Program-made: the position numbers and the translations under genes
Part shown: positions 6,289-48,189 of the stretch, in pieces
Layout: every line of letters starts with the position of its first letter
Position numbering within the stretch: position 1 is the first letter of the stretch
The notes under the pieces: generated by a model
What the model was told of the DNA's origin: nothing
The model's database searches: none
Seen by the model: only the letters and a program-made list of their open reading frames with translations
DNA from: Eledone cirrhosa
Taxonomy: Eukaryota
DNA length: 64,000 nucleotides
Reading direction: 5' to 3'
NCBI GenBank assembly: GCA_964016885.1
Contig: OZ024745.1
Location: 3,472,001 to 3,536,000 of the forward strand

Positions 6289-6530
6289 ATTTCATCTATT
6301 GATTCAGAGTTGCTCGTGTATTCCCAGCTCATCCATCCATAACGGTGGGGAAATTGAGGGCTAGAAGAACAGTGGTGGTGGGGTAATGGCAGGGTGTGTT
6401 GGGATGCGCCAGAGGAGGAGAGAGTTAGTTAGGCAGGTAGTAGCAGCAGCAGTGGAAATGGCATGCTAGGTTTGATTGGTCGAATAGACTATGGTGGTGT
6501 GTGGGGGTGGGGGGGTGGGGGGAACTTGTG

Positions 6531-9500
6531 AGGTAGGAAGTGAGGGTCGCATGGTAAATATCCAAGTTAATACTACATCAGTAAAATTAACAATAATAAC
6601 GTCATGAAAAACTACTAAGAGAAACCCTCGAAAATTTATCGCTAATACAGCAGGGAAAATTTAACGCTAATACAGCAGGGAACATCATAATATTAACGAC
6701 AATATGTAGGCTAAAATACCTTCGTAGATTAGATGGATGGCTGGAAAAATTGGAATCAGCTCTAGTGATACATTTTAGCAGAGAAGAATGGGAAAGTGTC
6801 TTATCTCTTCAATATTTTCAGATTGAATGAATTAGGTTAAAGACAGGGTAGTAGCTTTAAAGAAGTGCATAGAGAGGGGGGTAGGAACTGAGGGTCGCAT
6901 GGTAAATAACTGAGAGAGATACAATAGGATTAGAATACCGCATGGTAAATATCCAAGTTAATAAGTTAATACTACATCAGTAAAATTAACAATAATAACG
7001 TCATGAAAAACTACTAAGAGAAACCCTCGAAAATTTATCGCTAATACAGCAGGGAAAATTTAACGCTAATACAGCAGGGAACATCATAATATTAACGACA
7101 ATATGTAGGCTAAAATACCTTCGTAGATTAGATGGATGGCTGGAAAAATTGGAATCAGCTCTAGTGATACATTTTAGCAGAGAAGAATGGGAAAGTGTCT
7201 TATCTCTTCAATATTTTCAGATTGAATGAATTAGGTTAAAGACAGGGTAGTAGCCTTAAAGAAGTGCATAGAGAGGGGGGGTAGGAACTGAGGGTCGCAT
7301 GGTAAATAACTGAGAGAGATACAATAGGATTAGAATACCGCATGGTAAATATCCAAGTTAATAAGTTAATACTACATCAGTAAAATTAACAATAATAACG
7401 TCATGAAAAACTACTAAGAGAAACCCTCGAAAATTTATCGCTAATACAGCAGGGAAAATTTAACGCTAATACAGCAGGGAACATCATAATATTAACGACA
7501 ATATGTAGGCTAAAATACCTTCGTAGATTAGATGGATGGCTGGAAAAATTGGAATCAGCTCTAGTGATACATTTTAGCAGAGAAGAATGGGAAAGTGTCT
7601 TATCTCTTCAATATTTTCAGATTGAATGAATTAGGTTAAAAACAGGGTAGTAGCCTTAAAGAAGTGCATAGAGAGGGGGGGGTAGGAACTGAGGGTCGCA
7701 TGGTAAATAACTGAGAGAGATACAATAGGATTAGAATACCGCATGGTAAATATCCAAGTTAATAAGTTAATACTACATCAGTAAAATTAACAATAACGTC
7801 ATGAAAAACTACTAAGAGAAACCCTCGAAAATTTATCGCTAATACAGCAGGGAAAATTTAACGCTAATACAGCAGGGAACATCATAATATTAACGACAAT
7901 ATGTAGGCTAAAATACCTTCGTAGATTAGATGGATGGCTGGAAAAATTGGAATCAGCTCTAGTGATACATTTTAGCAGAGAAGAATGGGAAAGTGTCTTA
8001 TCTCTTCAATATTTTCAGATTGAATGAATTAGGTTAAAGACAGGGTAGTAGCCTTAAAGAAGTGCATAGAGAGGGGGGGGTAGGAACTGAGGGTCGCATG
8101 GTAAATAACTGAGAGAGATACAATAGGATTAGAATACCGCATGGTAAATATCCGAGTTAATACTACATCAGTAAAATTAACAATAATAACGTCATGAAAA
8201 ACTACTAAGAGAAACCCTCGAAAATTTATCGCTAATACAGCAGGGAAAATTTAACGCTAATACAGCAGGGAACATCATAATATTAACGACAATATGTAGG
8301 CTAAAATAGCTTCGTAGATTAGATGGATGGCTGGAAAAATTGGAATCAGCTCTAGTGATACATTTTAGCAGAGAAGAATGGGAAAGTGTCTTATCTCTTC
8401 AATATATTCAGATTGAATGAATTAGGTTAAAGACAGGGTAGTAGCCTTAAAGAAGTGCATAGAGAGGGGGGGGGGTAGGAACTGAGGGTCGCATGGTAAA
8501 TAACTGAGAGAGATACAATAGGATTAGAATACCGCATGGTAAATATCCAAGTTAATAAGTTAATACTACATCAGTAAAATTAACAATAACGTCATGAAAA
8601 ACTACTAAGAGAAACCCTCGAAAATTTATCGCTAATACAGCAGGGAAAATTTAACGCTAATACAGCAGGGAACATCATAATATTAACGACAATATGTAGG
8701 CTAAAATACCTTCGTAGATTAGATGGATGGCTGGAAAAATTGGAATCAGCTCTAGTGATACATTTTAGCAGAGAAGAATGGGAAAGTGTCTTATCTCTTC
8801 AATATTTCAGATTGAATGAATTAGGTGAAAGACAGGGTAGTAGCCTTAAAGAAGTGCATAGAGAGGGGGGGGGGGTAGGAACTGAGGGTCGCATGGTAAA
8901 TAACTGAGAGAGATACAATAGGATTAGAATACCGCATGGTAAATATCCGAGTTAATACTACATCAGTAAAATTAACAATAATAACGTCATGAAAAACTAC
9001 TAAGAGAAACCCTCGAAAATTTATCGCTAATACAGCAGGGAAAATTTAACGCTAATACAGCAGGGAACATCATAATATTAACGACAATATGTAGGCTAAA
9101 ATACCTTCGTAGATTAGATGGATGGCTGGAAAAATTGGAATCAGCTCTAGTAATACATTTTAGCAGAGAAGAATGGGAAAGTGTCTTATCTCTTCAATAT
9201 TTTCAGATTGAATGAATTAGGTTAAAGACAGGGTAGTAGCCTTAAAGAAGTGCATAGAGAGGGGTGGGTAGGAACTGAGGGTCGCATGGTAAATAACTGA
9301 GAGAGATACAATAGGATTAGAATACCGCATGGTAAATATCCAAGTTAATAAGTTAATACTACATCAGTAAAATTAACAATAACGTCATGAAAAACTACTA
9401 AGAGAAACCCTCGAAAATTTATCGCTAATACAGCAGGGAAAATTTAACGCTAATACAGCAGGGAACATCATAATATTAACGACAATATGTAGGCTAAAAT

Positions 9501-12500
9501 ACCTTCGTAGATTAGATGGATGGCTGGAAAAATTGGAATCAGCTCTAGTGATACATTTTAGCAGAGAAGAATGGGAAAGTGTCTTATCTCTTCAATATTT
9601 CAGATGGAATGAATTAGGTGAAAGACAGGGTAGTAGCCTTAAAGAAGTGCATAGAGAGGGGGGGGGGGGGTAGGAACTGAGGGTCGCATGGTAAATAACT
9701 GAGAGAGATACAATAGGATTAGAATACCGCATGGTAAATATCCAAGTTAATAAGTTAATACTACATCAGTAAAATTAACAATAACGTCATGAAAAACTAC
9801 TAAGAGAAACCCTCGAAAATTTATCGCTAATACAGCAGGGAAAATTTAACGCTAATACAGCAGGGAACATCATAATATTAACGAAAATATGTAGGCTAAA
9901 ATACCTTCGTAGATTAGATGGATGGCTGGAAAAATTGGAATCAGCTCTAGTGATACATTTTAGCAGAGAAGAATGGGAAAGTGTCTTATCTCTTCAATAT
10001 TTTCAGATTGAATGAATTAGGTTAAAGACAGGGTAGTAGCTTTAAAGAAGTGCATAGAGAGGGGGGGAGTAGGAACTGATGGTCGCATGGTAAATAACTG
10101 AGAGAGATACAATAGGATTAGAATACCGCATGGTAAATATCCAAGTTAATAAGTTAATACTACATCAGTAAAATTAACAATAATAACGTCATGAAAAACT
10201 ACTAAGAGAAACCCTCGAAAATTTATCGCTAATACAGCAGGGAAAATTTAACGCTAATACAGCAGGGAACATCATAATATTAACGACAATATGTAGGCTA
10301 AAATACCTTCGTAGATTAGATGGATGGCTGGAAAAATTGGAATCAGCTCTAGTGATATATTTTAGCAGAGAAGAATGGGAAAGTGTCTTATCTCTTCAAT
10401 ATTTTCAGATTGAATGAATTAGGTTAAAGACAGGGTAGTAGCCTTAAAGAAGTGCATAGAGAGGGGGGGGGGTAGGAACTGAGGGTCGCATAGTAAATAA
10501 CTGAGAGAGATACAATAGGATTAGAATACCGCATGGTAAATATCCAAGTTAATAAGTTAATACTACATCAGTAAAATTAACAATAACGTCATGAAAAACT
10601 ACTAAGAGAAACCCTCGAAAATTTATCGCTAATACAGCAGGGAAAATTTAACGCTAATACAGCAGGGAACATCATAATATTAACGACAATATGTAGGCTA
10701 AAATACCTTCGTAGATTAGATGGATGGCTGGAAAAATTAGAATCAGCTCTAGTGATACATTTTAGCAGAGAAGAATGGGAAAGTGTCTTATCTCTTCAAT
10801 ATTTTCAGATTGAATGAATTAGGTTAAAGACAGGGTAGTAGCCTTAAAGAAGTGCATAGAGAGGGGGGTAGGAACTGAGGGTCGCATGGTAAATAACTGA
10901 GAGAGATACAATAGGATTAGAATACCGCATGGTAAATATCCAAGTTAATAAGTTAATACTACATCAGTAAAATTAACAATAACGTCATGAAAAACTACTA
11001 AGAGAAACCCTCGAAAATTTATCGCTAATACAGCAGGGAAAATTTAACGCTAATACAGCAGGGAACATCATAATATTAACGACAATATGTAGGCTAAAAT
11101 ACCTTCGTAGATTAGATGGATGGCTGGAAAAATTGGAATCAGCTCTAGTGATACATTTTAGCAGAGAAGAATGGGAAAGTGTCTTATCTCTTCAATATTT
11201 CAGATTGAATGAATTAGGTGAAAGACAGGGTAGTAGCCTTAAAGAAGTGCATAGAGAGGGGGGGGGGTAGGAACTGAGGGTCGCATGGTAAATAACTGAG
11301 AGAGATACAATAGGATTAGAATACCGCATGGTAAATATCCAAGTTAATAAGTTAATACTACATCAGTAAAATTAACAATAACGTCATGAAAAACTACTAA
11401 GAGAAACCCTCGAAAATTTATCGCTAATACAGCAGGGAAAATTTAACGCTAATACAGCAGGGAACATCATAATATTAACGAAAATATGTAGGCTAAAATA
11501 CCTTCGTAGATTAGATGGATGGCTGGAAAAATTGGAATCAGCTCTAGTGATACATTTTAGCAGAGAAGAATGGGAAAGTGTCTTATCTCTTCAATATTTT
11601 CAGATTGAATGAATTAGGTTAAAGACAGGGTAGTAGCTTTAAAGAAGTGCATATAGAGGGAGGGGGGGTAGGAACTGAGGGTCGCATGGTAAATAACTGA
11701 GAGAGATACAATAGGATTAGAATACCGCATGCTAAATATCCAAGTTAATAAGTTAATACTACATCAGTAAAATTAACAATAATAACGTCATGAAAAACTA
11801 CTAAGAGAAACCCTCGAAAATTTATCGCTAATACAGCAGGGAAAATTTAACGCTAATACAGCAGGGAACATCATAATATTAACGACAATATGTAGGCTAA
11901 AATACCTTCGTAGATTAGATGGATGGCTGGAAAAATTGGAATCAGCTCTAGTAATACATTTTAGCAGAGAAGAATGGGAAAGTGTCTTATCTCTTCAATA
12001 TTTTCAGATTGAATGAATTAGGTGAAAGACAGGGTAGTAGCCTTAAAGAAGTGCATAGAGAGGGGGGGGGTAGGAACTGAGGGTCGCATGGTAAATAACT
12101 GAGAGAGATACAATAGGATTAGAATACCGCATGGTAAATATCCAAGTTAATACTACATCAGTAAAATTAACAATAATAACGTCATGAAAAACTACTAAGA
12201 GAAACCCTCGAAAATTTATCGCTAATACAGCAGGGAAAATTTAACGCTAATACAGCAGGGAACATCATAATATTAACGACAATATGTAGGCTAAAATACC
12301 TTCGTAGATTAGATGGATGGCTGGAAAAATTGGAATCAGCTCTAGTGATACATTTTAGCAGAGAAGAATGGGAAAGTGTCTTATCTCTTCAATATTTTCA
12401 GATTGAATGAATTAGGTTAAAGACAGGGTAGTAGCCTTAAAGAAGTGCATAGAGAGGGGGGGGTAGGAACTGAGGGTCGCATGGTAAATAACTGAGAGAG

Positions 12501-15500
12501 ATACAATAGGATTAGAATACCGCATGGTAAATATCCAAGTTAATAAGTTAATACTACATCAGTAAAATTAATAATAACGTCATGAAAAACTACTAAGAGA
12601 AACCCTCGAAAATTTATCGCTAATACAGCAGGGAAAATTTAACGCTAATACAGCAGGGAACATCATAATATTAACGACAATATGTAGGCTAAAATACCTT
12701 CGTAGATTAGATGGATGGCTGGAAAAATTGGAATCAGCTCTAGTGATACATTTTAGCAGAGAAGAATGGGAAAGTGTCTTATCTCTTCAATATTTCAGAT
12801 TGAATGAATTAGGTGAAAGACAGGGTAGTAGCCTTAAAGAAGTGCATAGAGAGGGGGGGGGTAGGAACTGAGGGTCGCATGGTAAATAACTGAGAGAGAT
12901 ACAATAGGATTAGAATACCGCATGGTAAATATCCGAGTTAATACTACATCAGTAAAATTAACAATAATAACGTCATGAAAAACTACTAAGAGAAACCCTC
13001 GAAAATTTATCGCTAATACAGCAGGGAAAATTTAACGCTAATTCAGCAGGGAACATCATAATATTAACGACAATATGTAGGCTAAAATACCTTCGTAGAT
13101 TAGATGGATGGCTGGAAAAATTGGAATCAGCTCTAGTGATACATTTTAGCAGAGAAGAATGGGAAAGTGTCTTATCTCTTCAATATTTTCAGATTGAATG
13201 AATTAGGTTAAAGACAGGGTAGTAGCCTTAAAGAAGTGCATAGAGAGGGGGGGGGTAGGAACTGAGGGTCGCATGGTAAATAACTGAGAGAGATACAATA
13301 GGATTAGAATACCGCATGGTAAATATCCAAGTTAATAAGTTAATACTACATCAGTAAAATTAACAATAACGTCATGAAAAACTACTAAGAGAAACCCTCG
13401 AAAATTTATCGCTAATACAGCAGGGAAAATTTAACGCTAATACAGCAGGGAACATCATAATATTAACGACAATATGTAGGCTAAAATACCTTCGTAGATT
13501 AGATGGATGGCTGGAAAAATTAGAATCAGCTCTAGTGATACATTTTAGCAGAGAAGAATGGGAAAGTGTCTTATCTCTTCAATATTTTCAGATTGAATGA
13601 ATTAGGTTAAAGACAGGGTAGTAGCCTTAAAGAAGTGCATAGAGAGGGGGGGTAGGAACTGAGGGTCGCATGGTAAATAACTGAGAGAGATACAATAGGA
13701 TTAGAATACCGCATGGTAAATATCCAAGTTAATAAGTTAATACTACATCAGTAAAATTAACAATAACGTCATGAAAAACTACTAAGAGAAACCCTCGAAA
13801 ATTTATCGCTAATACAGCAGGGAAAATTTAACGCTAATACAGCAGGGAACATCATAATATTAACGACAATATGTGGGCTAAAATACCTTCGTAGATTAGA
13901 TGGATGGCTGGAAAAATTGGAATCAGCTCTAGTGATACATTTTAGCAGAGAAGAATGGGAAAGTGTCTTATCTCTTCAATATTTCAGATTGAATGAATTA
14001 GGTGAAAGACAGGGTAGTAGCCTTAAAGAAGGCGGGGGTAGGAACTGAGGGTCGCATGGTAAATAACTGAGAGAGATACAATAGGATTAGAATACCGCAT
14101 GGTAAATATCCAAGTTAATAAGTTAATACTACATCAGTAAAATTAACAATAACGTCATGAAAAACTACTAAGAGAAACCCTCGAAAATTTATCGCTAATA
14201 CAGCAGGGAAAATTTAACGCTAATACAGCAGGGAACATCATAATATTAACGACAATATGTAGGCTAAAATACCTTCGTAGATTAGATGGATGGCTGGAAA
14301 AATTAGAATCAGCTCTAGTGATACATTTTAGCAGAGAAGAATGGGAAAGTGTCTTATCTCTTCAATATTTTCAGATTGAATGAATTAGGTTAAAGACAGG
14401 GTAGTAGCCTTAAAGAAGTGCATAGAGAGGGGGGGGTAGGAACTGAGGGTCGCATGGTAAATAACTGAGAGAGATACAATATGATTAGAATACCGCATGG
14501 TAAATATCCAAGTTAATAAGTTAATACTACATCAGTAAAATTAACAATAACGTCATGAAAAACTACTAAGAGAAACCCTCGAAAATTTATCGCTAATACA
14601 GCAGGGAAAATTTAACGCTAATACAGCAGGGAACATCATAATATTAACGACAATATGTAGGCTAAAATACCTTCGTAGATTAGATGGATGGCTGGAAAAA
14701 TTGGAATCAGCTCTAGTGATACATTTTAGCAGAGAAGAATGGGAAAGTGTCTTATCTCTTCAATATTTTCAGATTGAATGAATTAGGTTAAAGACAGGGT
14801 AGTAGCTTTAAAGAAGTGCATAGAGAGGGGGGGGGTAGGAACTGAGGGTCGCATGGTAAATAACTGAGAGAGATACAATAGGATTAGAATACCGCATGCT
14901 AAATATCCAAGTTAATAAGTTAATACTACATCAGTAAAATTAACAATAATAACGTCATGAAAAACTACTAAGAGAAACCCTCGAAAATTTATCGCTAATA
15001 CAGCAGGGAAAATTTAACGCTAATACAGCAGGGAACATCATAATATTAACGACAATATGTAGGCTGAAATACCTTCGTAGATTAGATGGATGGCTGGAAA
15101 AATTAGAATCAGCTCTAGTGATACATTTTAGCAGAGAAGAATGGGAAAGTGTCTTATCTCTTCAATATTTTCAGATTGAATGAATTAGGTTAAAGACAGG
15201 GTAGTAGCCTTAAAGAAGTGCATAGAGAGGGGGGGTAGGAACTGAGGGTCGCATGGTAAATAACTGAGAGAGATACAATAGGATTAGAATACCGCATGGT
15301 AAATATCCAAGTTAATAAGTTAATACTACATCAGTAAAATTAACAATAACGTCATGAAAAACTACTAAGAGAAACCCTCGAAAATTTATCGCTAATACAG
15401 CAGGGAAAATTTAACGCTAATACAGCAGGGAACATCATAATATTAACGACAATATGTGGGCTAAAATACCTTCGTAGATTAGATGGATGGCTGGAAAAAT

Positions 15501-18500
15501 TGGAATCAGCTCTAGTGATACATTTTAGCAGAGAAGAATGGGAAAGTGTCTTATCTCTTCAATATTTCAGATTGAATGAATTAGGTGAAAGACAGGGTAG
15601 TAGCCTTAAAGAAGTGCATAGAGAGGGCGGGGGTAGGAACTGAGGGTCGCATGGTAAATAACTGAGAGAGATACAATAGGATTAGAATACCGCATGGTAA
15701 ATATCCAAGTTAATAAGTTAATACTACATCAGTAAAATTAACAATAACGTCATGAAAAACTACTAAGAGAAACCCTCGAAAATTTATCGCTAATACAGCA
15801 GGGAAAATTTAACGCTAATACAGCAGGGAACATCATAATATTAACGACAATATGTAGGCTAAAATACCTTCGTAGATTAGATGGATGGCTGGAAAAATTA
15901 GAATCAGCTCTAGTGATACATTTTAGCAGAGAAGAATGGGAAACAGGGTAGTAGCCTTAAAGAAGTGCATAGAGAGGGGGGGTAGGAACTGAGGTCGCAT
16001 GAGTAAATAACTGAGAGAGATACAATAGGATTAGAATACCGCATGGTAAATATCCAAGTTAATAAGTTAATACTACATCAGTAAAAATTAACAATAACGT
16101 CATGAAAAACTACTAAGAGAAAACCCTCGAAAATTTATCGCTAATACAGCAGGGAAAATTTAACGCTAATACAGCAGGGAACATCATAATATTAACGACA
16201 ATAGTGTAGGCTAAAATACCTTCGTAGATTAGATCGGATGGCTGAGAAAATTGGAATCAGCTCTAGTGATACATTTTAGCAGAGAGAATGGAAAGTGTCT
16301 TATCTCTTCAACTATTTTCAGATTGAATGAATTAGGTTAAAGACAGGGTAGTAGCTTTAAAGAAGTGCATAGAGAGGGGGGGGTAGGAACTGAGGGTCGC
16401 ATGGTAAATAACTGAGAGAGATACAATAGGATTAGAATACGCGCATGCTAATATCCAAGTTAATAAGTTAATACTACATCAGTAAAATTAACAATAATAG
16501 AACGTCATGAAAAACTACTAGAGAAACCCCTCGAAAAATTTATCGCTAATACAGCAGGGAAAATTTAACGCTAATACAGCAGGGAACATCATAATATTAA
16601 CGACAATATGTAGGCTAAAAATACCTTCGTAGATTAGATGGATGGCTGGAAAAATTGGAATCAGCTCTAGTGATACATTTTAGCAGAGAAGAATGGGAAA
16701 GTGTCTTATCTCTTCAATATTTTCAGATTGAATGAATTAGGTTAAAGACAGGGTAGTAGCCTTAAAGAAGTGCATAGAGAGGGGGGGGTAGGAGCTGAGG
16801 GTCTGCATGGTAAATAACTGAGAGAGATACAATAGGATTAGAATACCGCATGTTAAATATCCAAGTTAATAAGTTAATAATACATCAGTAAAATTAACAA
16901 TAACGTCATGAAAAACTACTAAGAGAAACCCCTCGAAAATTTATCGCTAATACAGCAGGGAAAATTTAACGCTAATACAGCAGGGAACATCATAATATTA
17001 ACGACAATATGTAGGCTAAAATACCTTCGTAGATTAGATGGATGGCTGGAAAAATTGGAATCAGCTCTAGTGATACATTTTAGCAGAGAAGAATGGAAAG
17101 TGTCTTATCTCTTCAATATTTCAGATTGAATGAATTAGGTGAAAGACAGGGGTAGTAGCCTTAAAGAAGTGCATAGAGAGGGGGGGGTAGGAACTGAGGG
17201 CTCGCATGGTAAATAACTGAGAGAGATACAATAGGATTAGAATACCGCATGGTAAATATCCAAGTTAATACTACATCAGTAAAATTAACCAATAATAACG
17301 TCATGAAAAACTACTAAGAGAAACCCTCGAAAATTTATCGCTAATACAGCAGGGAAAATTTAACGCTAATACAGCAGGGACATCATAATATTAAACGACA
17401 ATATGTAGGCTAAAATACCTTCGTAGATTAGATGATGGCTGGAAAAATTGGAATCAGCTCTAGTGATACATTTTAGCAGAGAAGAATGGGAAAGTGTCTT
17501 ATCTACTTCAATATTTCAGATTGAATGAATTAGGTTAAAGACAGGGTAGTAGCCTTAAAGAAGTACATAGAGAGGGGGGGGTAGGACTGAGGGTCACATG
17601 GTAAATAACTGAGAGAGATACAATAGGATTAGAATACCGCATGGTAAATATCCAAGTTAATAAGTTAATACTACATCAGTAAAATTAACAATAACGTCAT
17701 GAAAAACTACTAAGAGAAACCCTCGAAAATTTATCGCTAATACAGCAGGGAAAATTTAACGCTAATACAGCAGGGAACATCATAATATATTAACGACAAA
17801 TATGTAGGCTAAAATACCTTCGTAGATTAGATGGATGGCTGGAAAATTGGAATCAGCTCTAGTGATACATTTTAGCAGAGAAGAATGGGAAAGTGTCTTA
17901 TCTCTTCAATATTTTCAGAGTTTGAATGAATATAGGTTAAAGACAGGGTAGTAGCCTTAAAGAAGTGCATAGAGAGGGGGGGGTAGGAACTGAGGGTCGC
18001 ATGGTAAATAACTGAGAGAGATACAATAGGATTAGAATACCGCATGGTAAATATCCAAGTTAATAAGTTAATACTACATCAGTAAATTAACAATAACGTC
18101 ATGAAAAACTACTAAGAGAAAACCCTCGAAAATTTATCGCTAATACAGCAGGAACATCATAATATTAACGACAATATGTAGGCTAAAATACCTTCGTAGA
18201 TTAGATGGATGGCTCGAAAAATTGGAATCAGCTCTAGTGATACATTTTAGCAGAGAAGAATGGGAAAGTGTCTTATCTCTTCAATATTTCAGATTGAATG
18301 AATTAGGTTAAAGACAGGGTAGTAGCCTCTTAAAGAAGTGCATAGAGAGGGGGGGGTGGTAGGAACTGAGGGTCGCATGGTAAATAACTGATAGAGATAC
18401 AATAGGATTAGAATACCGCATGGTAAATATCCAAGTTAATAAGTTAATACTACATCAGTAAAATTAACAATAACGTCATGAAAAACTACTAAGAGAAACC

Positions 18501-30837: not shown

Positions 30838-30880
30838 ATTATATATATATATATTATATATATATATATTATATATATAC
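30838..30880. repeat. imperfect (TA)n tract
   Basis: Direct reading. Confidence 0.95.
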
Positions 30881-34204: not shown

Positions 34205-34282
<78 letters not shown>

Positions 34283-34327: not shown

Positions 34328-34724
34328 ATCATCATCATCATCATCATCATCAGGTTTAGCGTCCGTGTTCCACGCTTGCATGGGTTTGGACGGGGGTTTT
34401 CCCACTTGAGGCAAGAGTGGTTGTCTTGCTCGCATAGGACTGTCTGGCGGGTTTTCTACAGTTGGATGCCCTTCCTAACACCAACCACATTTACAGTGTG
34501 GGGCTGGGAGGTTTTTACCGTGTTGCCTACACGGCCACATTTACAGCGTGGACTGTGTGTTTTTTGTCGTGACACCTACACGATCTCATTTGTTTCGGCC
34601 TGGGTGTTGTGGGACCAACATAACTTTACATTGAAAGGGGCGGTGTGGGTGGGGTGGAGGTGGTGGGACGGGGGTGTGTTTTGATAGAGATGCCTACTGA
34701 CTGTAGTAGGTTTTTACTTTGTAT

Positions 34725-37700
34725 TTAGGTAAGGCGGGTCTTCTCTATTACTGAGTACCGCCAAAGGTCTCGGTCCAGTGACATTGTCTTGGAGAGGTGT
34801 AAGCGTGTGAGGTCGGAATTTATCAGCTCGTCCCATGTTTTTCTGGGTCTGCCTACTCCGTGGCTACCGTCTATCTTTATTGCCCTGCACTTTGTTATAC
34901 AGCTGTCGTCTTTCATGCGCATCACGTGACCGTACCAACGTAGCCTTCTCTCGAGTAAACAACACTTGATCCCTCTTATTTCTAATTTTTTCCTTAGTTC
35001 GTTTATGCTTTGCCGTTCACGTATATTACTATTGCACATCCAGCGGAGCATGCAAGCTTCGTTCCTCTCTAGTCTGCGTATATCCTCTGCACACAATGCC
35101 CAGGTCTCACTGCCATGCAGCATTGCTGTTCGTATGCAGGCATCGTATAACCTGCCTTTCATTTTTAGGGAGAACCCTCTAGCGGCTAATAGTGGTATAA
35201 GCTCTCTGAACTTTTTCCATCCAGTTCTGACTCTAGCTACTGTACTTTCAGAGCACCCTCCCCCACTGCTGATTTTGTCACCCAGATAACGGAAGCTGTC
35301 CACTATTTCTATAGAACCCTCTGCGCAGTTGAAGGAGCTAGTATTTTGTGGGCACTTGCTGCTACTTATTGCACCAGAGCACCGGCCACATGTAAAATCT
35401 ATGTTCTTAGTTAGCTTACCTGTGATCCCACTACATCTTTTATGCACCCATACTTTGCATTTGGGACATAAAATGGAGTTTCTACCTACGCCTTTCCTAC
35501 ACACTGAGCATGGCCATTTCCCCGATGGGACCGCCGCCTTATTTTCTTTCCTACAAACTAGAACTTTAGTCTTAGCCAGGTTAATTTTAAGGCCTTTTGA
35601 TTCTAGGCCGTGCTTCCACGTTTGGAATTTCTTCTCTAGTTCGGTCATTGATTCAGCTATGAGCGTTAGATCATCTGCGTATAGGAGTTCCCATGGGCAG
35701 CCGGTCTTGAACTCCTCTGTTATAGCCTGAAGGGCAATAATAAATAGTAGGGGGCTAAGTACAGAGCCCTGATGGACACCAACTTTTACGCTAAACTCTT
35801 CACTATATTCGTTGTTAATTCTAACCTTACTGACTGTTTCTTTATACATGGCTTGTATAGCTCTCACAAGCCATTCGTCAACACCTAGTTTTCTAAGAGA
35901 CCACCAGATAATGGAACGGGGGACTCTGTCGAAGGCTTTCTCCAAGTCGACAAAAGCTAAGTATAGGGGTTTACTTTTAGCTAGGTACTTCTCCTGTAGT
36001 TGTCGTACAATGAAAAGAGCGTCTGTGGTACTTTTGCCTGACACAAACCCGAACTGCATTTCATCTAGATCAATTCTCTCTCTGATTAGTTGCGCTATTA
36101 CTTTTTCCGTGACCTTCATGACCTGGTCGATTAATTTAATGCCTCTATAGTTACTCCTATCTAGGGCATCTCCTTTTCCCTTATAGCAGTTAACGATGAT
36201 GCTGCTACGCCATTCCTTCGGAACAACCCCATTCTGTACGACTTGGTTAACTATCCGGGTGACCATGGTGTGTCCCACCGAACCAGATGCCTTCAGCATC
36301 TCAGCAACTATTTCCGAAGGCCCAGCCGCCTTACCCGTCTTCATATCTTTGATTGCCTTACTTATTATACTACCTTCAACTAACACTGCTGGTCCCTCTA
36401 TTGGATCGATCTGGGGGAGACTGTCTTTCTCCCATTTGTTCTCCTCATTTAGAAGCCTTTCGTAGTGACACTTCCAAGCTACCTTCTTATCAGCGTCGGT
36501 GATGGCAAGTATGCCATCATCGTTAAGTACACACTTCTCCCCGACAATATCACGGTTTTCCTTGACACATTGCCTGGCAATCCTGAACACCTCACGTTTT
36601 TGGTCCTCACGTTGTAGAACATGCTTGAACTTTCTTTCCTCTGCTTCCCTTCTTGCGAAGTACACTTGTCTCCTAGCTTCCCTCCTGGCCACTTGATAGT
36701 CTTCTCTACTTCCCCTATCCCGCCATACTTTCCAAGCCTGCTTTTTGGCCTTAATTGACTCCTCCACCTTACTGTTCCACCACCATGTTACTCTCCTCCT
36801 ACCTACAGGCCTGCTCCAGCCACAGACTTCGTCTGCCGCCGTCAGCAGGTTTGCTCTCAGGAATTCCCACTGTTCCTCTATATTATACGACTCTAATTGC
36901 TCTTCCTTACTGTCGAAAGCGTCAAGTAATTTGCTTTGAAATTTATTTCTGGCTATGGGGTCCTTTAGCTTCCATATTTTTCTCCTGAGGATAGTCCTCT
37001 TCCGCTGTCTAGTACGTCTCGTCCTGACTATGAGGTCGCTAATTATCAGTCTATGTTGGGAGGTGAATTCTTCATGGGGGTGGGATTTAGTGTTAACAAC
37101 AGACACTCTGTCACGTCTTCTGGTAAGGATATAATCTACCTGGCTTGTGTGTTCCCCCGATCTATAGGTGATCAAGTGATTGTCTCGTTTTTTGAAGTTA
37201 GTGTTACAGATAGTTAAGTTATTTGCGTCGCAGAATTCCAGGATTCTGGAGCCTTCCTCATTTCTAGTACCGAACCCATAGCCTCCATGGATTCCGTCAT
37301 AGCCGTCACAATGTTGTCCAACGTGACCATTTAGGTCGCCTGCAATAACTATATAGTCACTGTCGGTTATTTGGGAGGTAGCGAGCATCAGTGTCTCGTA
37401 GAATCTGTCTTTTATAGCGCGGGGCAGTCCGGATTGGGGTGCGTACGCAGATATTACTGTCACCGTAGTTTTATTGAGGACAAGTCTTATTTTAATTATT
37501 CTGTCGTTCACTCTATTTACGTCTATTATCTTATCTGCCCACTTTTCTGCTACCATGATTCCTACCCCACCCAACCCATTGTCATTTCCCACCCAGAAAA
37601 GCTTATAGCATCGTTCTTTACCCACGATGAATCTAGCCGACCCTCCCCTCCACCTGGTCTCTTGAATACAACAAACATCGACCTCCTTACGTTCAAGCAT

Positions 37701-37745
37701 TTCTACAACCTCGTTAGAGCGACCCTTTAAGGTGCCTACATTCAT
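34725..37745 (-). CDS. RTE-A APE endonuclease + reverse transcriptase + PHD-type finger (1006 aa; true start probably ATG 37957, upstream of a homopolymer frameshift)
   Basis: All APE and RT motifs are present (QET, YAP, GDLNGH, QFGF, DLEKAFD, YADD, YLG), with an RTE-type C-terminus [16 protein letters not shown]. Confidence 0.95.
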   Translation of the reverse strand: MNVGTLKGRSNEVVEMLERKEVDVCCIQETRWRGGSARFIVGKERCYKLFWVGNDNGLGGVGIMVAEKWADKIIDVNRVNDRIIKIRLVLNKTTVTVISAYAPQSGLPRAIKDRFYETLMLATSQITDSDYIVIAGDLNGHVGQHCDGYDGIHGGYGFGTRNEEGSRILEFCDANNLTICNTNFKKRDNHLITYRSGEHTSQVDYILTRRRDRVSVVNTKSHPHEEFTSQHRLIISDLIVRTRRTRQRKRTILRRKIWKLKDPIARNKFQSKLLDAFDSKEEQLESYNIEEQWEFLRANLLTAADEVCGWSRPVGRRRVTWWWNSKVEESIKAKKQAWKVWRDRGSREDYQVARREARRQVYFARREAEERKFKHVLQREDQKREVFRIARQCVKENRDIVGEKCVLNDDGILAITDADKKVAWKCHYERLLNEENKWEKDSLPQIDPIEGPAVLVEGSIISKAIKDMKTGKAAGPSEIVAEMLKASGSVGHTMVTRIVNQVVQNGVVPKEWRSSIIVNCYKGKGDALDRSNYRGIKLIDQVMKVTEKVIAQLIRERIDLDEMQFGFVSGKSTTDALFIVRQLQEKYLAKSKPLYLAFVDLEKAFDRVPRSIIWWSLRKLGVDEWLVRAIQAMYKETVSKVRINNEYSEEFSVKVGVHQGSVLSPLLFIIALQAITEEFKTGCPWELLYADDLTLIAESMTELEKKFQTWKHGLESKGLKINLAKTKVLVCRKENKAAVPSGKWPCSVCRKGVGRNSILCPKCKVWVHKRCSGITGKLTKNIDFTCGRCSGAISSSKCPQNTSSFNCAEGSIEIVDSFRYLGDKISSGGGCSESTVARVRTGWKKFRELIPLLAARGFSLKMKGRLYDACIRTAMLHGSETWALCAEDIRRLERNEACMLRWMCNSNIRERQSINELRKKLEIRGIKCCLLERRLRWYGHVMRMKDDSCITKCRAIKIDGSHGVGRPRKTWDELINSDLTRLHLSKTMSLDRDLWRYSVIEKTRLT

Positions 37746-38060
37746 GGTACCAACTCTGAAGTTTTGGATTGCGTTTGGAGGGTGGGAGCGGTGGGGCGCG
37801 GGGGGGATGGGGTTATGTTAGCCATCCTGGGCCGAAACAAGGAGGAGTGCTTGCATTCTCGTCCACGAGGTGAATTTGGCTTTATCTTTGGCATTGTCGC
37901 TGAGCGTCCACATTTTTCTCTCTTCAACTCTCCAGAATTCCGTAGTCCATCCATCATATCGAAAAGCAACCAGTTAAGCGATAGTATGGGCCTCTGACTT
38001 ATGATTGGTCCACGTAATAATGGTGGTGCGTGGGGGCGGGAGGGAGGGATGATGGGTTGT

Positions 38061-41000
38061 TAGCGAGAATGTAAGGTTTAAGATAAGATCGCCGTATTTT
38101 GGGCATGATTTAACAATAAACGAAAATACAAGATTTGTTTTGTTTAAGAAAATACGATAGAGAAAATGCGGTGATAGGGAAAATATGATTTTTAGAGAAA
38201 AGATATGATATAGAATGGTGAAAATATGATATAGTGTGAAATTAGGACATAGAAGTGATTGAATGAATGGGTTCGAATGGAGAGAAGAATCGAGAAAAAA
38301 TTGGGCATAATTTAACAATAAACGAAAATACAAGATTTGTTTTGTTTAAGAAAATACGATAGAGAAAATGCGGTGATAGGGAAAATATGATTTTTAGAGA
38401 AAAGATATGATATAGAATGGTGAAAATATGATATAGTGTGAATTTAGGACATAGAAGTGATTGAATGAATGGGTTCGAATGGAGAGAAGAATCGAGAAAA
38501 AATTGGGCATAATTTAACAATAAACGAAAATACAAGATTTGTTTTGTTTAAGAAAATACGATAGAGAAAATGCGGTGATAGGGAAAATATGATTTTTAGA
38601 GAAAAGATATGATATAGAATGGTGAAAATATGATATAGTGTGAAATTAGGACATAGAAGTGATTGAATGAATGGGTTCGAATGGAGAGAAGAATCGAGAA
38701 AAAATTGGGCATAATTTAACAATAAACGAAAATACAAGATTTGTTTTGTTTAAGAAAATACGATAGAGAAAATGCGGTGATAGGGAAAATATGATTTTTA
38801 GAGAAAAGATATGATATAGAATGGTGAAAATATGATATAGTGTGAAATTAGGACATAGAAGTGATTGAATGAATGGGTTCGAATGGAGAGAAGAATCGAG
38901 AAAAAATTGGGCATAATTTAACAATAAACGAAAATACAAGATTTGTTTTGTTTAAGAAAATACGATAGAGAAAATGCGGTGATAGGGAAAATATGATTTT
39001 TAGAGAAAAGATATGATATAGAATGGTGAAAATATGATATAGTGTGAAATTAGGACATAGAAGTGATTGAATGAATGGGTTCGAATGGAGAGAAGAATCG
39101 AGAAAAAATTGGGCATAATTTAACAATAAACGAAAATACAAGATTTGTTTTGTTTAAGAAAATACGATAGAGAAAATGCGGTGATAGGGAAAATATGATT
39201 TTTAGAGAAAAGATATGATATAGAATGGTGAAAATATGATATAGTGTGAAATTAGGACATAGAAGTGATTGAATGAATGGGTTCGAATGGAGAGAAGAAT
39301 CGAGAAAAAATTGGGCATAATTTAACAATAAACGAAAATACAAGATTTGTTTTGTTTAAGAAAATACGATAGAGAAAATGCGGTGATAGGGAAAATATGA
39401 TTTTTAGAGAAAAGATATGATATAGAATGGTGAAAATATGATATAGTGTGAAATTAGGACATAGAAGTGATTGAATGAATGGGTTCGAATGGAGAGAAGA
39501 ATCGAGAAAAAATTGGGCATAATTTAACAATAAACGAAAATACAAGATTTGTTTTGTTTAAGAAAATACGATAGAGAAAATGCGGTGATAGGGAAAATAT
39601 GATTTTTAGAGAAAAGATATGATATAGAATGGTGAAAATATGATATAGTGTGAAATTAGGACATAGAAGTGATTGAATGAATGGGTTCGAATGGAGAGAA
39701 GAATCGAGAAAAAATTGGGCATAATTTAACAATAAACGAAAATACAAGATTTGTTTTGTTTAAGAAAATACGATAGAGAAAATGCGGTGATAGGGAAAAT
39801 ATGATTTTTAGAGAAAAGATATGATATAGAATGGTGAAAATATGATATAGTGTGAATTTAGGACATAGAAGTGATTGAATGAATGGGTTCGAATGGAGAG
39901 AAGAATCGAGAAAAAATTGGGCATAATTTAACAATAAACGAAAATACAAGATTTGTTTTGTTTAAGAAAATACGATAGAGAAAATGCGGTGATAGGGAAA
40001 ATATGATTTTTAGAGAAAAGATATGATATAGAATGGTGAAAATATGATATAGTGTGAAATTAGGACATAGAAGTGATTGAATGAATGGGTTCGAATGGAG
40101 AGAAGAATCGAGAAAAAATTGGGCATAATTTAACAATAAACGAAAATACAAGATTTGTTTTGTTTAAGAAAATACGATAGAGAAAATGCGGTGATAGGGA
40201 AAATATGATTTTTAGAGAAAAGATATGATATAGAATGGTGAAAATATGATATAGTGTGAAATTAGGACATAGAAGTGATTGAATGAATGGGTTCGAATGG
40301 AGAGAAGAATCGAGAAAAAATTGGGCATAATTTAACAATAAACGAAAATACAAGATTTGTTTTGTTTAAGAAAATACGATAGAGAAAATGCGGTGATAGG
40401 GAAAATATGATTTTTAGAGAAAAGATATGATATAGAATGGTGAAAATATGATATAGTGTGAATTTAGGACATAGAAGTGATTGAATGAATGGGTTCGAAT
40501 GGAGAGAAGAATCGAGAAAAAATTGGGCATAATTTAACAATAAACGAAAATACAAGATTTGTTTTGTTTAAGAAAATACGATAGAGAAAATGCGGTGATA
40601 GGGAAAATATGATTTTTAGAGAAAAGATATGATATAGAATGGTGAAAATATGATATAGTGTGAAATTAGGACATAGAAGTGATTGAATGAATGGGTTCGA
40701 ATGGAGAGAAGAATCGAGAAAAAATTGGGCATAATTTAACAATAAACGAAAATACAAGATTTGTTTTGTTTAAGAAAATACGATAGAGAAAATGCGGTGA
40801 TAGGGAAAATATGATTTTTAGAGAAAAGATATGATATAGAATGGTGAAAATATGATATAGTGTGAAATTAGGACATAGAAGTGATTGAATGAATGGGTTC
40901 GAATGGAGAGAAGAATCGAGAAAAAATTGGGCATAATTTAACAATAAACGAAAATACAAGATTTGTTTTGTTTAAGAAAATACGATAGAGAAAATGCGGT

Positions 41001-44000
41001 GATAGGGAAAATATGATTTTTAGAGAAAAGATATGATATAGAATGGTGAAAATATGATATAGTGTGAAATTAGGACATAGAAGTGATTGAATGAATGGGT
41101 TCGAATGGAGAGAAGAATCGAGAAAAAATTGGGCATAATTTAACAATAAACGAAAATACAAGATTTGTTTTGTTTAAGAAAATACGATAGAGAAAATGCG
41201 GTGATAGGGAAAATATGATTTTTAGAGAAAAGATATGATATAGAATGGTGAAAATATGATATAGTGTGAAATTAGGACATAGAAGTGATTGAATGAATGG
41301 GTTCGAATGGAGAGAAGAATCGAGAAAAAATTGGGCATAATTTAACAATAAACGAAAATACAAGATTTGTTTTGTTTAAGAAAATACGATAGAGAAAATG
41401 CGGTGATAGGGAAAATATGATTTTTAGAGAAAAGATATGATATAGAATGGTGAAAATATGATATAGTGTGAATTTAGGACATAGAAGTGATTGAATGAAT
41501 GGGTTCGAATGGAGAGAAGAATCGAGAAAAAATTGGGCATAATTTAACAATAAACGAAAATACAAGATTTGTTTTGTTTAAGAAAATACGATAGAGAAAA
41601 TGCGGTGATAGGGAAAATATGATTTTTAGAGAAAAGATATGATATAGAATGGTGAAAATATGATATAGTGTGAAATTAGGACATAGAAGTGATTGAATGA
41701 ATGGGTTCGAATGGAGAGAAGAATCGAGAAAAAATTGGGCATAATTTAACAATAAACGAAAATACAAGATTTGTTTTGTTTAAGAAAATACGATAGAGAA
41801 AATGCGGTGATAGGGAAAATATGATTTTTAGAGAAAAGATATGATATAGAATGGTGAAAATATGATATAGTGTGAAATTAGGACATAGAAGTGATTGAAT
41901 GAATGGGTTCGAATGGAGAGAAGAATCGAGAAAAAATTGGGCATAATTTAACAATAAACGAAAATACAAGATTTGTTTTGTTTAAGAAAATACGATAGAG
42001 AAAATGCGGTGATAGGGAAAATATGATTTTTAGAGAAAAGATATGATATAGAATGGTGAAAATATGATATAGTGTGAATTTAGGACATAGAAGTGATTGA
42101 ATGAATGGGTTCGAATGGAGAGAAGAATCGAGAAAAAATTGGGCATAATTTAACAATAAACGAAAATACAAGATTTGTTTTGTTTAAGAAAATACGATAG
42201 AGAAAATGCGGTGATAGGGAAAATATGATTTTTAGAGAAAAGATATGATATAGAATGGTGAAAATATGATATAGTGTGAAATTAGGACATAGAAGTGATT
42301 GAATGAATGGGTTCGAATGGAGAGAAGAATCGAGAAAAATTTGAACGTTACTTTATACCGAAGGGAACAGCCATCCCAGAAATAGCGAGTTGGCGATTTT
42401 GATTAATTTTGGTAGGGTTTTATCTTATATGTATAGAGAGGGAGGGGGGGGGCAGGAACCAGCATGATGAATGGGTAGGGGGTAGAATATGGGATGGAGC
42501 AGAGGTTAAAAGTTTAAATAGGTACTCGAAGATTTGCGTAAAACTTAGCAAGTTTAACAAATTATATTTAAAGGAATATATAATAGTGATAGCGAGAATG
42601 TAAGGTTTAAGATAAGATCGCCGTATTTTGGGCATGATTTAACAATAAACGAAAATACAAGATTTGTTTTGTTTAAGAAAATACGATAGAGAAAATGCGG
42701 TGATAGGGAAAATATGATTTTTAGAGAAAAGATATGATATAGAATGGTGAAAATATGATATAGTGTGAAATTAGGACATAGAAGTGATTGAATGAATGGG
42801 TTCGAATGGAGAGAAGAATCGAGAAAAAATTGGGCATAATTTAACAATAAACGAAAATACAAGATTTGTTTTGTTTAAGAAAATACGATAGAGAAAATGC
42901 GGTGATAGGGAAAATATGATTTTTAGAGAAAAGATATGATATAGAATGGTGAAAATATGATATAGTGTGAATTTAGGACATAGAAGTGATTGAATGAATG
43001 GGTTCGAATGGAGAGAAGAATCGAGAAAAAATTGGGCATAATTTAACAATAAACGAAAATACAAGATTTGTTTTGTTTAAGAAAATACGATAGAGAAAAT
43101 GCGGTGATAGGGAAAATATGATTTTTAGAGAAAAGATATGATATAGAATGGTGAAAATATGATATAGTGTGAAATTAGGACATAGAAGTGATTGAATGAA
43201 TGGGTTCGAATGGAGAGAAGAATCGAGAAAAAATTGGGCATAATTTAACAATAAACGAAAATACAAGATTTGTTTTGTTTAAGAAAATACGATAGAGAAA
43301 ATGCGGTGATAGGGAAAATATGATTTTTAGAGAAAAGATATGATATAGAATGGTGAAAATATGATATAGTGTGAAATTAGGACATAGAAGTGATTGAATG
43401 AATGGGTTCGAATGGAGAGAAGAATCGAGAAAAAATTGGGCATAATTTAACAATAAACGAAAATACAAGATTTGTTTTGTTTAAGAAAATACGATAGAGA
43501 AAATGCGGTGATAGGGAAAATATGATTTTTAGAGAAAAGATATGATATAGAATGGTGAAAATATGATATAGTGTGAAATTAGGACATAGAAGTGATTGAA
43601 TGAATGGGTTCGAATGGAGAGAAGAATCGAGAAAAAATTGGGCATAATTTAACAATAAACGAAAATACAAGATTTGTTTTGTTTAAGAAAATACGATAGA
43701 GAAAATGCGGTGATAGGGAAAATATGATTTTTAGAGAAAAGATATGATATAGAATGGTGAAAATATGATATAGTGTGAAATTAGGACATAGAAGTGATTG
43801 AATGAATGGGTTCGAATGGAGAGAAGAATCGAGAAAAAATTGGGCATAATTTAACAATAAACGAAAATACAAGATTTGTTTTGTTTAAGAAAATACGATA
43901 GAGAAAATGCGGTGATAGGGAAAATATGATTTTTAGAGAAAAGATATGATATAGAATGGTGAAAATATGATATAGTGTGAAATTAGGACATAGAAGTGAT

Positions 44001-47000
44001 TGAATGAATGGGTTCGAATGGAGAGAAGAATCGAGAAAAAATTGGGCATAATTTAACAATAAACGAAAATACAAGATTTGTTTTGTTTAAGAAAATACGA
44101 TAGAGAAAATGCGGTGATAGGGAAAATATGATTTTTAGAGAAAAGATATGATATAGAATGGTGAAAATATGATATAGTGTGAAATTAGGACATAGAAGTG
44201 ATTGAATGAATGGGTTCGAATGGAGAGAAGAATCGAGAAAAAATTGGGCATAATTTAACAATAAACGAAAATACAAGATTTGTTTTGTTTAAGAAAATAC
44301 GATAGAGAAAATGCGGTGATAGGGAAAATATGATTTTTAGAGAAAAGATATGATATAGAATGGTGAAAATATGATATAGTGTGAATTTAGGACATAGAAG
44401 TGATTGAATGAATGGGTTCGAATGGAGAGAAGAATCGAGAAAAAATTGGGCATAATTTAACAATAAACGAAAATACAAGATTTGTTTTGTTTAAGAAAAT
44501 ACGATAGAGAAAATGCGGTGATAGGGAAAATATGATTTTTAGAGAAAAGATATGATATAGAATGGTGAAAATATGATATAGTGTGAAATTAGGACATAGA
44601 AGTGATTGAATGAATGGGTTCGAATGGAGAGAAGAATCGAGAAAAAATTGGGCATAATTTAACAATAAACGAAAATACAAGATTTGTTTTGTTTAAGAAA
44701 ATACGATAGAGAAAATGCGGTGATAGGGAAAATATGATTTTTAGAGAAAAGATATGATATAGAATGGTGAAAATATGATATAGTGTGAAATTAGGACATA
44801 GAAGTGATTGAATGAATGGGTTCGAATGGAGAGAAGAATCGAGAAAAAATTGGGCATAATTTAACAATAAACGAAAATACAAGATTTGTTTTGTTTAAGA
44901 AAATACGATAGAGAAAATGCGGTGATAGGGAAAATATGATTTTTAGAGAAAAGATATGATATAGAATGGTGAAAATATGATATAGTGTGAATTTAGGACA
45001 TAGAAGTGATTGAATGAATGGGTTCGAATGGAGAGAAGAATCGAGAAAAAATTGGGCATAATTTAACAATAAACGAAAATACAAGATTTGTTTTGTTTAA
45101 GAAAATACGATAGAGAAAATGCGGTGATAGGGAAAATATGATTTTTAGAGAAAAGATATGATATAGAATGGTGAAAATATGATATAGTGTGAAATTAGGA
45201 CATAGAAGTGATTGAATGAATGGGTTCGAATGGAGAGAAGAATCGAGAAAAAATTGGGCATAATTTAACAATAAACGAAAATACAAGATTTGTTTTGTTT
45301 AAGAAAATACGATAGAGAAAATGCGGTGATAGGGAAAATATGATTTTTAGAGAAAAGATATGATATAGAATGGTGAAAATATGATATAGTGTGAAATTAG
45401 GACATAGAAGTGATTGAATGAATGGGTTCGAATGGAGAGAAGAATCGAGAAAAAATTGGGCATAATTTAACAATAAACGAAAATACAAGATTTGTTTTGT
45501 TTAAGAAAATACGATAGAGAAAATGCGGTGATAGGGAAAATATGATTTTTAGAGAAAAGATATGATATAGAATGGTGAAAATATGATATAGTGTGAAATT
45601 AGGACATAGAAGTGATTGAATGAATGGGTTCGAATGGAGAGAAGAATCGAGAAAAAATTGGGCATAATTTAACAATAAACGAAAATACAAGATTTGTTTT
45701 GTTTAAGAAAATACGATAGAGAAAATGCGGTGATAGGGAAAATATGATTTTTAGAGAAAAGATATGATATAGAATGGTGAAAATATGATATAGTGTGAAA
45801 TTAGGACATAGAAGTGATTGAATGAATGGGTTCGAATGGAGAGAAGAATCGAGAAAAAATTGGGCATAATTTAACAATAAACGAAAATACAAGATTTGTT
45901 TTGTTTAAGAAAATACGATAGAGAAAATGCGGTGATAGGGAAAATATGATTTTTAGAGAAAAGATATGATATAGAATGGTGAAAATATGATATAGTGTGA
46001 ATTTAGGACATAGAAGTGATTGAATGAATGGGTTCGAATGGAGAGAAGAATCGAGAAAAAATTGGGCATAATTTAACAATAAACGAAAATACAAGATTTG
46101 TTTTGTTTAAGAAAATACGATAGAGAAAATGCGGTGATAGGGAAAATATGATTTTTAGAGAAAAGATATGATATAGAATGGTGAAAATATGATATAGTGT
46201 GAAATTAGGACATAGAAGTGATTGAATGAATGGGTTCGAATGGAGAGAAGAATCGAGAAAAAATTGGGCATAATTTAACAATAAACGAAAATACAAGATT
46301 TGTTTTGTTTAAGAAAATACGATAGAGAAAATGCGGTGATAGGGAAAATATGATTTTTAGAGAAAAGATATGATATAGAATGGTGAAAATATGATATAGT
46401 GTGAAATTAGGACATAGAAGTGATTGAATGAATGGGTTCGAATGGAGAGAAGAATCGAGAAAAAATTGGGCATAATTTAACAATAAACGAAAATACAAGA
46501 TTTGTTTTGTTTAAGAAAATACGATAGAGAAAATGCGGTGATAGGGAAAATATGATTTTTAGAGAAAAGATATGATATAGAATGGTGAAAATATGATATA
46601 GTGTGAATTTAGGACATAGAAGTGATTGAATGAATGGGTTCGAATGGAGAGAAGAATCGAGAAAAAATTGGGCATAATTTAACAATAAACGAAAATACAA
46701 GATTTGTTTTGTTTAAGAAAATACGATAGAGAAAATGCGGTGATAGGGAAAATATGATTTTTAGAGAAAAGATATGATATAGAATGGTGAAAATATGATA
46801 TAGTGTGAAATTAGGACATAGAAGTGATTGAATGAATGGGTTCGAATGGAGAGAAGAATCGAGAAAAATTTGAACGTTACTTTATACCGAAGGGAACAGC
46901 CATCCCAGAAATAGCGAGTTGGCGATTTTGATTAATTTTGGTAGGGTTTTATCTTATATGTATAGAGAGGGAGGGGGGGGGCAGGAACCAGCATGATGAA

Positions 47001-48189
47001 TGGGTAGGGGGTAGAATATGGGATGGAGCAGAGGTTAAAAGTTTAAATAGGTACTCGAAGATTTGCGTAAAACTTAGCAAGTTTAACAAATTATATTTAA
47101 AGGAATATATAATAGTGATAGCGAGAATGTAAGGTTTAAGATAAGATCGCCGTATTTTGGGCATGATTTAACAATAAACGAAAATACAAGATTTGTTTTG
47201 TTTAAGAAAATACGATAGAGAAAATGCGGTGATAGGGAAAATATGATTTTTAGAGAAAAGATATGATATAGAATGGTGAAAATATGATATAGTGTGAAAT
47301 TAGGACATAGAAGTGATTGAATGAATGGGTTCGAATGGAGAGAAGAATCGAGAAAAAATTGGGCATAATTTAACAATAAACGAAAATACAAGATTTGTTT
47401 TGTTTAAGAAAATACGATAGAGAAAATGCGGTGATAGGGAAAATATGATTTTTAGAGAAAAGATATGATATAGAATGGTGAAAATATGATATAGTGTGAA
47501 TTTAGGACATAGAAGTGATTGAATGAATGGGTTCGAATGGAGAGAAGAATCGAGAAAAAATTGGGCATAATTTAACAATAAACGAAAATACAAGATTTGT
47601 TTTGTTTAAGAAAATACGATAGAGAAAATGCGGTGATAGGGAAAATATGATTTTTAGAGAAAAGATATGATATAGAATGGTGAAAATATGATATAGTGTG
47701 AAATTAGGACATAGAAGTGATTGAATGAATGGGTTCGAATGGAGAGAAGAATCGAGAAAAATTTGAACGTTACTTTATACCGAAGGGAACAGCCATCCCA
47801 GAAATAGCGAGTTGGCGATTTTGATTAATTTTGGTAGGGTTTTATCTTATATGTATAGAGAGGGAGGGGGGGGGGGGCAGGAACCAGCATGATGAATGGG
47901 TAGGGGGTAGAATATGGGATGGAGCAGAGGTTAAAAGTTTAAATAGGTACTCGAAGATTTGCGTAAAACTTAGCAAGTTTAACAAATTATATTTAAAGGA
48001 ATATATAATAGTGATAGCGAGAATGTAAGGTTTAAGATAAGATCGCCGTATTTTGGGCATGATTTAACAATAAACGAAAATACAAGATTTGTTTTGTTTA
48101 AGAAAATACGATAGCGAAAATGCGGTGATAGGGAAAATATGATTTTTAGAGAAAAGATATGATATAGAATGGTGAAAATATGATATAGT
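38061..48189. repeat. composite tandem array: 21 x 202 bp, spacer, 21 x 202 bp, spacer, 3 x 202 bp, spacer, partial monomer
   Basis: 202-bp periodicity is visible in the sequence and in the ORF track. Spacers at 42341-42627, 46870-47156 and 47763-48052. Confidence 0.99.

Follow-up and report, generated by a model that had tools for sequence, protein, structure and literature searches.

Tandem monomer arrays attached to the 5' ends of two RTE-type LINE families in Eledone cirrhosa

Introduction

The subject of this study is a 64,000-nucleotide stretch of the Eledone cirrhosa genome (GenBank assembly GCA_964016885.1, contig OZ024745.1; C5:3472001-3536000), referred to here as the window, in which long interspersed nuclear elements (LINEs) are stacked together with TA tracts between them. 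Two of these LINEs, belonging to families designated A and B, continue upstream of their open reading frame (ORF) into long head-to-tail arrays of a short repeat unit, or monomer. A sequence-only reading of the window had proposed that these arrays are part of the elements. The goal of this study was to follow up that proposal in the whole assembly, which comprises 3.0 Gb in 1796 contigs.

Families A and B in the window

Families A and B are single-ORF LINEs of the RTE type with an endonuclease (EN), reverse transcriptase (RT) and PHD module. The Pfam domains Exo_endo_phos, RVT_1 and PHD lie within one frame in both families, no second long frame (ORF1) was found upstream in either, and both copies in the window end in a 3' microsatellite tail, (ATC)n or (GAT)n on the other strand. 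Named homologues of the ORF were a 'craniofacial development protein' (46%) and a Bombyx endonuclease-RT (34–37%), labels which we take to be markers of RTE elements. The ORFs of A and B are 75% identical in DNA and 72% identical in protein, while the B unit and the A unit are without significant similarity. Two diverged families therefore share one layout with unlike repeats, as the sequence-only reading had it.

Both copies in the window are broken. The B frame meets an in-frame stop after 877 codons, compared with a frame of 1038 amino acids (aa) in a B sister. The A copy has a frameshift near its start, which leaves frames of 105 and 1030 aa, and many A sisters have one intact frame of 1111 aa (stop to stop).

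In each copy the EN-RT-PHD frame, on the minus strand, is joined through a leader, short in A, to the array, and there is no TA tract in between. Array B, whose units show 95% matches by Tandem Repeats Finder (TRF), contains variants that occur in repeated blocks. Array A is made of 48 full 202-bp units, three spacers of 288–291 bp and partial units at both ends, so that its basic monomer, at about 491 bp, consists of a spacer and a unit. Within the array, two 4.5-kb blocks, each a spacer followed by 21 units, are identical at 4531/4531 bases. At their far ends the arrays stop mid-unit against a TA tract, B at position 363 of the unit and A at position 68. Both the uninterrupted passage into leader and ORF and the mid-unit stop at a TA tract, noted in the first description of the window, were confirmed. 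The coordinates are collected in Table 1.

Table 1. Features of the family A and family B copies and their arrays (positions in the window).
Feature	Position	Strand	Remarks
Family B RTE-type LINE body	2855..6530	-	tail, 3' untranslated region (UTR), frame, leader
B (ATC)n tail	2855-2885	-	
B EN-RT-PHD frame	3169-6291	-	one in-frame stop
B unique leader	6289-6530	-	C-rich
B terminal partial monomer	6531..6563	-	junction register common to other copies
B 5' array	6564..30837	-	61 full ~400-bp monomers and one partial (TRF)
TA tract at 5' end of array B	30838..30883	.	
Family A RTE-type LINE body	34328..38058	-	includes short leader
A (ATC)n tail	34328-34352	-	
A EN-RT-PHD frame	34725-37817	-	1030 aa
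A upstream frame	37742-38059	-	
A 5' array	38058..48189	-	202-bp units and spacers
Array A spacers	42344-42631, 46873-47160, 47766-48056	-	
TA tract at 5' end of array A	48190..49692	.	periodic, 1.5 kb

All monomers show a strong strand bias, the sense strand being poor in G and rich in pyrimidines (6564-6963, 38101-38302, 46873-47160); G accounts for 9 of the 202 bases of the A unit. About 14 kb past the end of the window, on the opposite strand, there is a further copy of family A whose array measures 2 kb (L172, C5:3.542-3.552 Mb). Within the window, an A-like copy is interrupted by a 200-base assembly gap (58759-58958), and the element sequences flanking the gap overlap.

The monomer is joined to the element at a fixed junction

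Counts of the junction rest on queries that contained no unit sequence (40 places per family, the window's own copy being left out). The same monomer was found in the same register in 34/39 B copies and 34/39 A copies. In each family the other five copies break off, mostly at TA, either in the leader or at most about 35 bases from the junction. Since such samples lean toward close sisters of the window copies, a position-ordered sample was also taken, consisting of the first 49 of 967 exact matches of a B ORF-start 22-mer in chromosome order. The unit, or a variant 71–95% like it, was present in 30/49 copies, nine of which were judged by coordinates only, from an exact unit 22-mer upstream (one of them 2.1 kb off). 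Another 16 copies end in the leader or at the ORF start and 3 end at the junction. Apart from the nine, the sample holds one previously known leader end and 39 sequences that were read, comprising 21 with the unit, 15 leader or ORF-start ends and 3 junction ends. Thus 30 of the 33 position-ordered B copies that reach the junction carry the unit, and no different, shared 5' end was found among the position-ordered copies.

The reverse search gave the same picture. Starting from the unit, 18/18 loci outside the window and 19/19 unit clusters on C1:1-208.7 Mb led into a B element, so that free family B arrays numbered 0/18 and 0/19. One A array of 26.5 kb ends at an assembly gap, and its attachment cannot be judged. 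A B unit 22-mer has 1103 matches genome-wide, which makes this B subtype a small fraction of the genome. Contigs from four public runs, with four organism labels, contain ORF-start and unit pieces with head-to-tail joints, and in one contig the sequence continues from the ORF into the terminal unit for 30 bases, one fewer than the threshold for a bridge. No public-run record spans the stretch, and the matching records are neither long reads nor RNA.

We hold it to be almost certain that the unit forms an integral 5' part of the element, specific to each family and attached at a fixed junction. The long arrays remain attached to their elements. The claim that the unit belongs to the element and is not a chance satellite neighbour is upheld by the fixed junction, with the fraction of copies abutting the unit now counted, and by the failure to find a free array.

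Array lengths

Most array 5' ends lie within 2 kb. Among B arrays, 18 are up to 0.5 kb, 8 up to 1 kb, 7 up to 2 kb and 1 is 10.7 kb (median 494 bp). Among A arrays, 14 are up to 0.5 kb, 7 up to 1 kb, 6 up to 2 kb, 4 of 2–5 kb, 1 of 7.9 kb and 2 of 23–25 kb (median 684 bp). Over 118 arrays the number of monomers varies, the 5'-most monomer is truncated, and lengths range from 76 bp to 63 kb. The longest array, of 63 kb and about 170 B units, lies between a TA tract and a 99% full-length element. Arrays longer than 10 kb were found in 3/78 copies, about 1 in 26, and the window is atypical in having two giant arrays next to each other. The assembly is the basis for the exact lengths, since no array-spanning read was seen.

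The sequence-only reading had described multi-kilobase arrays as the 5' ends of this lineage. Arrays of 10–63 kb are real at some sites, so the unit can expand to satellite scale as proposed, but they form the tail of a distribution whose medians are a few hundred bases. It had also called the lineage a seeder of satellite arrays. The satellite scale stands; the seeding can be upheld only for arrays that remain joined to their element, free ones not having been found.

Growth of the giant arrays

The giant arrays very probably grew in place after insertion. One variant 25-mer has 14 matches in the whole assembly, all in array B of the window, where the 14 units that carry it are scattered along the array. 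Another has 173 matches genome-wide, of which 169 were counted within one 63-kb array. Blocks of variants and spacers are repeated, in a pattern that is different at each locus. Where both rates could be measured, substitutions found in a single unit were fewer per kb than substitutions private to the element body in 9/11 arrays (0.71 vs 4.28 for window B, 0.22 vs 3.62 for the 63-kb array), although the body-private rates were obtained by comparison with only 8–20 other copies, are upper bounds and therefore overstate change after insertion.

This limit weighs against growth in place, and it is not the only point that does so. One 8-unit array showed the opposite trend (2.53 vs 1.65 per kb) and one array gave a tie at 0. 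Assembly polishing could remove differences between single units, and the middle of array B shows indel noise. At sites with a unique flank there is no clear target-site duplication around array plus element; none was evident in 4 truncated control copies either.

The neighbourhood of the arrays was also considered. A TA tract of at least 300 bp adjoins 6/13 arrays of at least 5 kb, compared with 14/97 short arrays (p 0.013), an association that suggests surroundings favourable to tandem growth. The whole block of element, array and TA tract occurs in tandem at L200/L201 (C1:421.101-421.116 Mb, 6.8 kb apart) and at L209 (C2:144.099-144.103 Mb, 3 kb apart), a further sign of local duplication. 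The TA tracts of the window at 48190-49692, 54535-57090, 59237-60387 and 62303-63604 are 1–2.5 kb long, each with its own period of 13–18 bases, so that the tracts themselves look locally amplified.

Most elements are flanked by TA or minisatellite on both sides. Minisatellites of 18–30 bp lie on one or both sides of the elements at L196:480-4593, L156/L227, L204 and L340-L344, and A and B seem to target micro- and minisatellites beyond (TA)n. Two more LINE families with EN and RT, presumably CR1-like, are set in TA tracts of the window (30884-34164 and 49693-51638, minus strand), with a fragment at 60389-61487 on the plus strand. They are 42% alike mutually and 26–31% alike to A and B, have other short-repeat tails, and recur near several long arrays (C21, C4:234.6 Mb, C1:365.7 Mb, L167 and L194).

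Several other origins of the arrays were weighed. Insertion of the elements into pre-existing satellites would account for the adjacency seen in the window, and for nothing further. The junction has one register on many chromosomes, the repeat lies on the 5' side only and no free arrays are known from the searches; the fixed register rules this origin out, and we give it practically no credence. Alternatively, the junctions may be real and the lengths of 10–63 kb inflated by assembly error. The perfect identity of the two blocks in array A and the noise in array B are the kind of signal that such error would leave, as are the gap at the end of the 26.5-kb array and the want of a spanning read in the public runs. 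Six arrays longer than 10 kb, however, run gap-free from a TA or unique flank to the element and are individually distinct in their variants and block patterns. Inflation by the assembly appears improbable. A third origin would place the event at insertion itself, with RT copying the RNA of a long-array donor or jumping back repeatedly on its template or on a circular RNA. Monomer variants that are common to different loci, small re-copied bits of the unit at some 5' junctions and one 8-kb array that is strictly periodic (6 x [5 units + spacer]) all agree with it. Yet other variants are confined to a single array across 3 Gb, and the block patterns are nested, irregular and different at every locus. 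With 5' ends occurring at about 1–1.5 per kb, the copying of 24–63 kb in one pass is very unlikely. We give formation at insertion only a slim chance and retain growth in place.

Monomer turnover

A subfamily with a body 91% like that of A was examined at 25 loci; its monomer is 495 bp long, and a second copy of it is visible at 7 of them. BLAST barely aligns this monomer with that of A, but its alignment with the spacer plus unit of about 491 bp, while weak, is significant (z 8.6, 0/200 shuffles), which makes the 202-bp unit of A a sub-repeat of an older monomer. The B unit in turn holds a 98-bp sub-repeat; one locus is a pure 98-bp array, and older B types are 71–79% alike. Three subfamilies retain the layout although their monomers differ. 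The monomers have been remodelled much faster than the ORF.

5' ends and a possible promoter

By analogy with rodent L1 elements, the monomer probably acts as a promoter. The density of 5' ends is about 1–1.5 per kb in the leader (1.3 per kb) and array, three to four times that in the ORF (about 0.4 per kb), on small numbers (9 copies counted at the 3' end and 3 where the ORF begins). TA or AT begins 33/67 B 5' ends, where about 15 are expected. The dense ends fit dispersed starts, and they also fit an easier completion of insertion in AT-rich sequence. Some properties of the monomer count against a promoter. The 5' ends fall evenly across the B monomer (Rayleigh p about 0.52, chi-square p 0.47, n = 67), and within the A unit they show no significant clustering (p 0.72 and 0.15, n = 33). 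The units are AT-rich (29–38% GC) and, with 5–9 CpG per unit, are CpG-poor, unlike rodent monomers.

No unique 5' terminus or shared upstream flank was found among 118 loci. A 42-bp piece common to three loci was considered as a 5' terminus and turned out to be a spacer variant. Leader and unit were compared with Rfam for a ribozyme of the HDV-like, twister or hammerhead kind; there was no ribozyme match up to E = 5, in a search that divergent variants could escape, and the core motifs of such ribozymes were absent. No stable fold was detected (z-scores 0.18 and -0.77). Like the dense ends, these negative results favour starts within the leader and monomers. Of the 16 B copies that end in the leader, eight do so in an interval of 39 bases round the first in-frame ATG (Poisson p about 0.001, post hoc). 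This cluster, at element positions 219-257 (about 6274-6312 in the window), is possibly a start site, a processing site or a product of AT microhomology.

The monomer could also be integral but passive, with transcription from the unique leader or by host read-through, the 5' ends reflecting truncation by RT, and growth in place occurring all the same. An even spread of ends over the monomer is what this would produce, as is an end density that is alike in leader and array, and the cluster of leader ends near the first ATG would suit a start there. An RTE element, Perere-3, is described with host promoters and a ribozyme in the part of PMC8501958 available. On the other hand, read-through should carry upstream flank along, and no such 5' transduction was seen among the 118 loci, nor was a ribozyme found in leader or unit. 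The layout has persisted in three subfamilies despite their different monomers. Most young copies that extend past the leader bear monomers, which indicates that most templates began upstream of the leader. We consider a passive repeat unlikely, though with a larger share of probability than any of the other origins above, and continue with the monomer as a probable promoter.

Proposed mechanism and significance

Taken together, we favour, with moderate confidence, an explanation in which two young RTE-type families carry a family-specific tandem monomer as their 5' part, likely a renewable promoter with dispersed starts, and in which arrays at some sites have likely grown to 10–63 kb through local DNA duplication after insertion. 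The cycle would set out from the joint of monomer and leader, seen in one register in nearly all copies reaching that far. Transcripts would start in the leader and the monomers, and new copies would land with anything from part of a monomer to a few of them, cut off mid-unit and often within (TA)n. Blocks of monomers would then be duplicated by unequal exchange or replication slippage; such duplication very likely restores the array for the next round and occasionally takes it to satellite size. Meanwhile the monomers are remodelled much faster than the ORF, as the 202-bp and 98-bp sub-repeats and the diverged types show.

A wider proposal is offered tentatively and may well prove wrong. L1-style monomer promoters could have arisen independently in an RTE lineage, renewing themselves through tandem duplication and turning over between subfamilies. 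Hundreds of dated insertions, graded from half a monomer up to higher-order arrays of 60 kb, would then display the birth of satellites on live retrotransposons, and the growth of arrays would in turn influence which copies act as sources. If true, this would be a second independent origin of the monomer-and-tether design.

The renewal of monomer promoters and the origin of satellites are open questions, and long arrays are scarce in mouse. In A and B, hundreds of young insertions whose structure is known have each founded a small array at a new site, and some are now higher-order and tens of kb long. How fast and in what modes tandem arrays grow, and how far this depends on the neighbourhood, can thus be measured directly across alleles and species. 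A practical consequence is that repeat libraries built from short reads or by consensus trimming lose the true 5' ends of these LINEs.

Comparison with known systems

The layout is real and genome-wide, and it resembles the monomer-and-tether 5' UTR of rodent L1; it was not found in print for the RTE clade. No literature account of 5' monomer arrays in RTE elements was found in a search that lay outside Repbase entries and most subscription journals. The accessible sections of a 2026 repeat annotation of Octopus vulgaris (PMC13282606) make no mention of such arrays.

A and B share with RTE-clade LINEs one ORF of about 1040–1110 aa, an APE endonuclease and RT, a zinc-binding module and a microsatellite 3' tail. 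The intact frame of family A (1111 aa) is close to that of Octopus RTE-2_OV (1109 aa; PMC9115989). The latter, which can be compared by description only, has UTRs of about 600 nt, and the word 'tandem' occurs 0 times in the main text of its report (PMC9115989). Schistosoma Perere-3 has a 5' twister ribozyme according to the excerpt available (PMC8501958), and none was found in A or B.

The closest likeness is to mouse L1Md (A, Gf, Tf) and rat L1, in which, as far as the consulted parts of the sources describe, tandem monomers meet a unique tether of about 250 bp at a fixed joint before the ORF (PMC6454616, PMC5381506, PMC9022269). Variable copy number, a 5' end within a monomer, family-specific monomer types and rare very long arrays are likewise shared. 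In the available text of PMC6454616, mouse L1Md has a mean of 2.7–3.1 monomers and a longest array of 50 (11.3 kb), ascribed to unequal crossing-over, and type A monomers have a common truncation site at the start site. The elements described here differ in belonging to another clade, with the single ORF of the RTE type, in having monomers that are AT-rich, CpG-poor and not CpG-island-like, in lacking a common 5' end position, and in arrays that reach 24–63 kb and up to 170 units with higher-order blocks. The SINE (short interspersed nuclear element)-derived satellites of squamates, as outlined in the accessible part of PMC10702118, are likewise tandem arrays made from part of a retroelement. 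In A and B, by contrast, the active element already carries its repeat in tandem, and a near-intact copy remains joined to each array.
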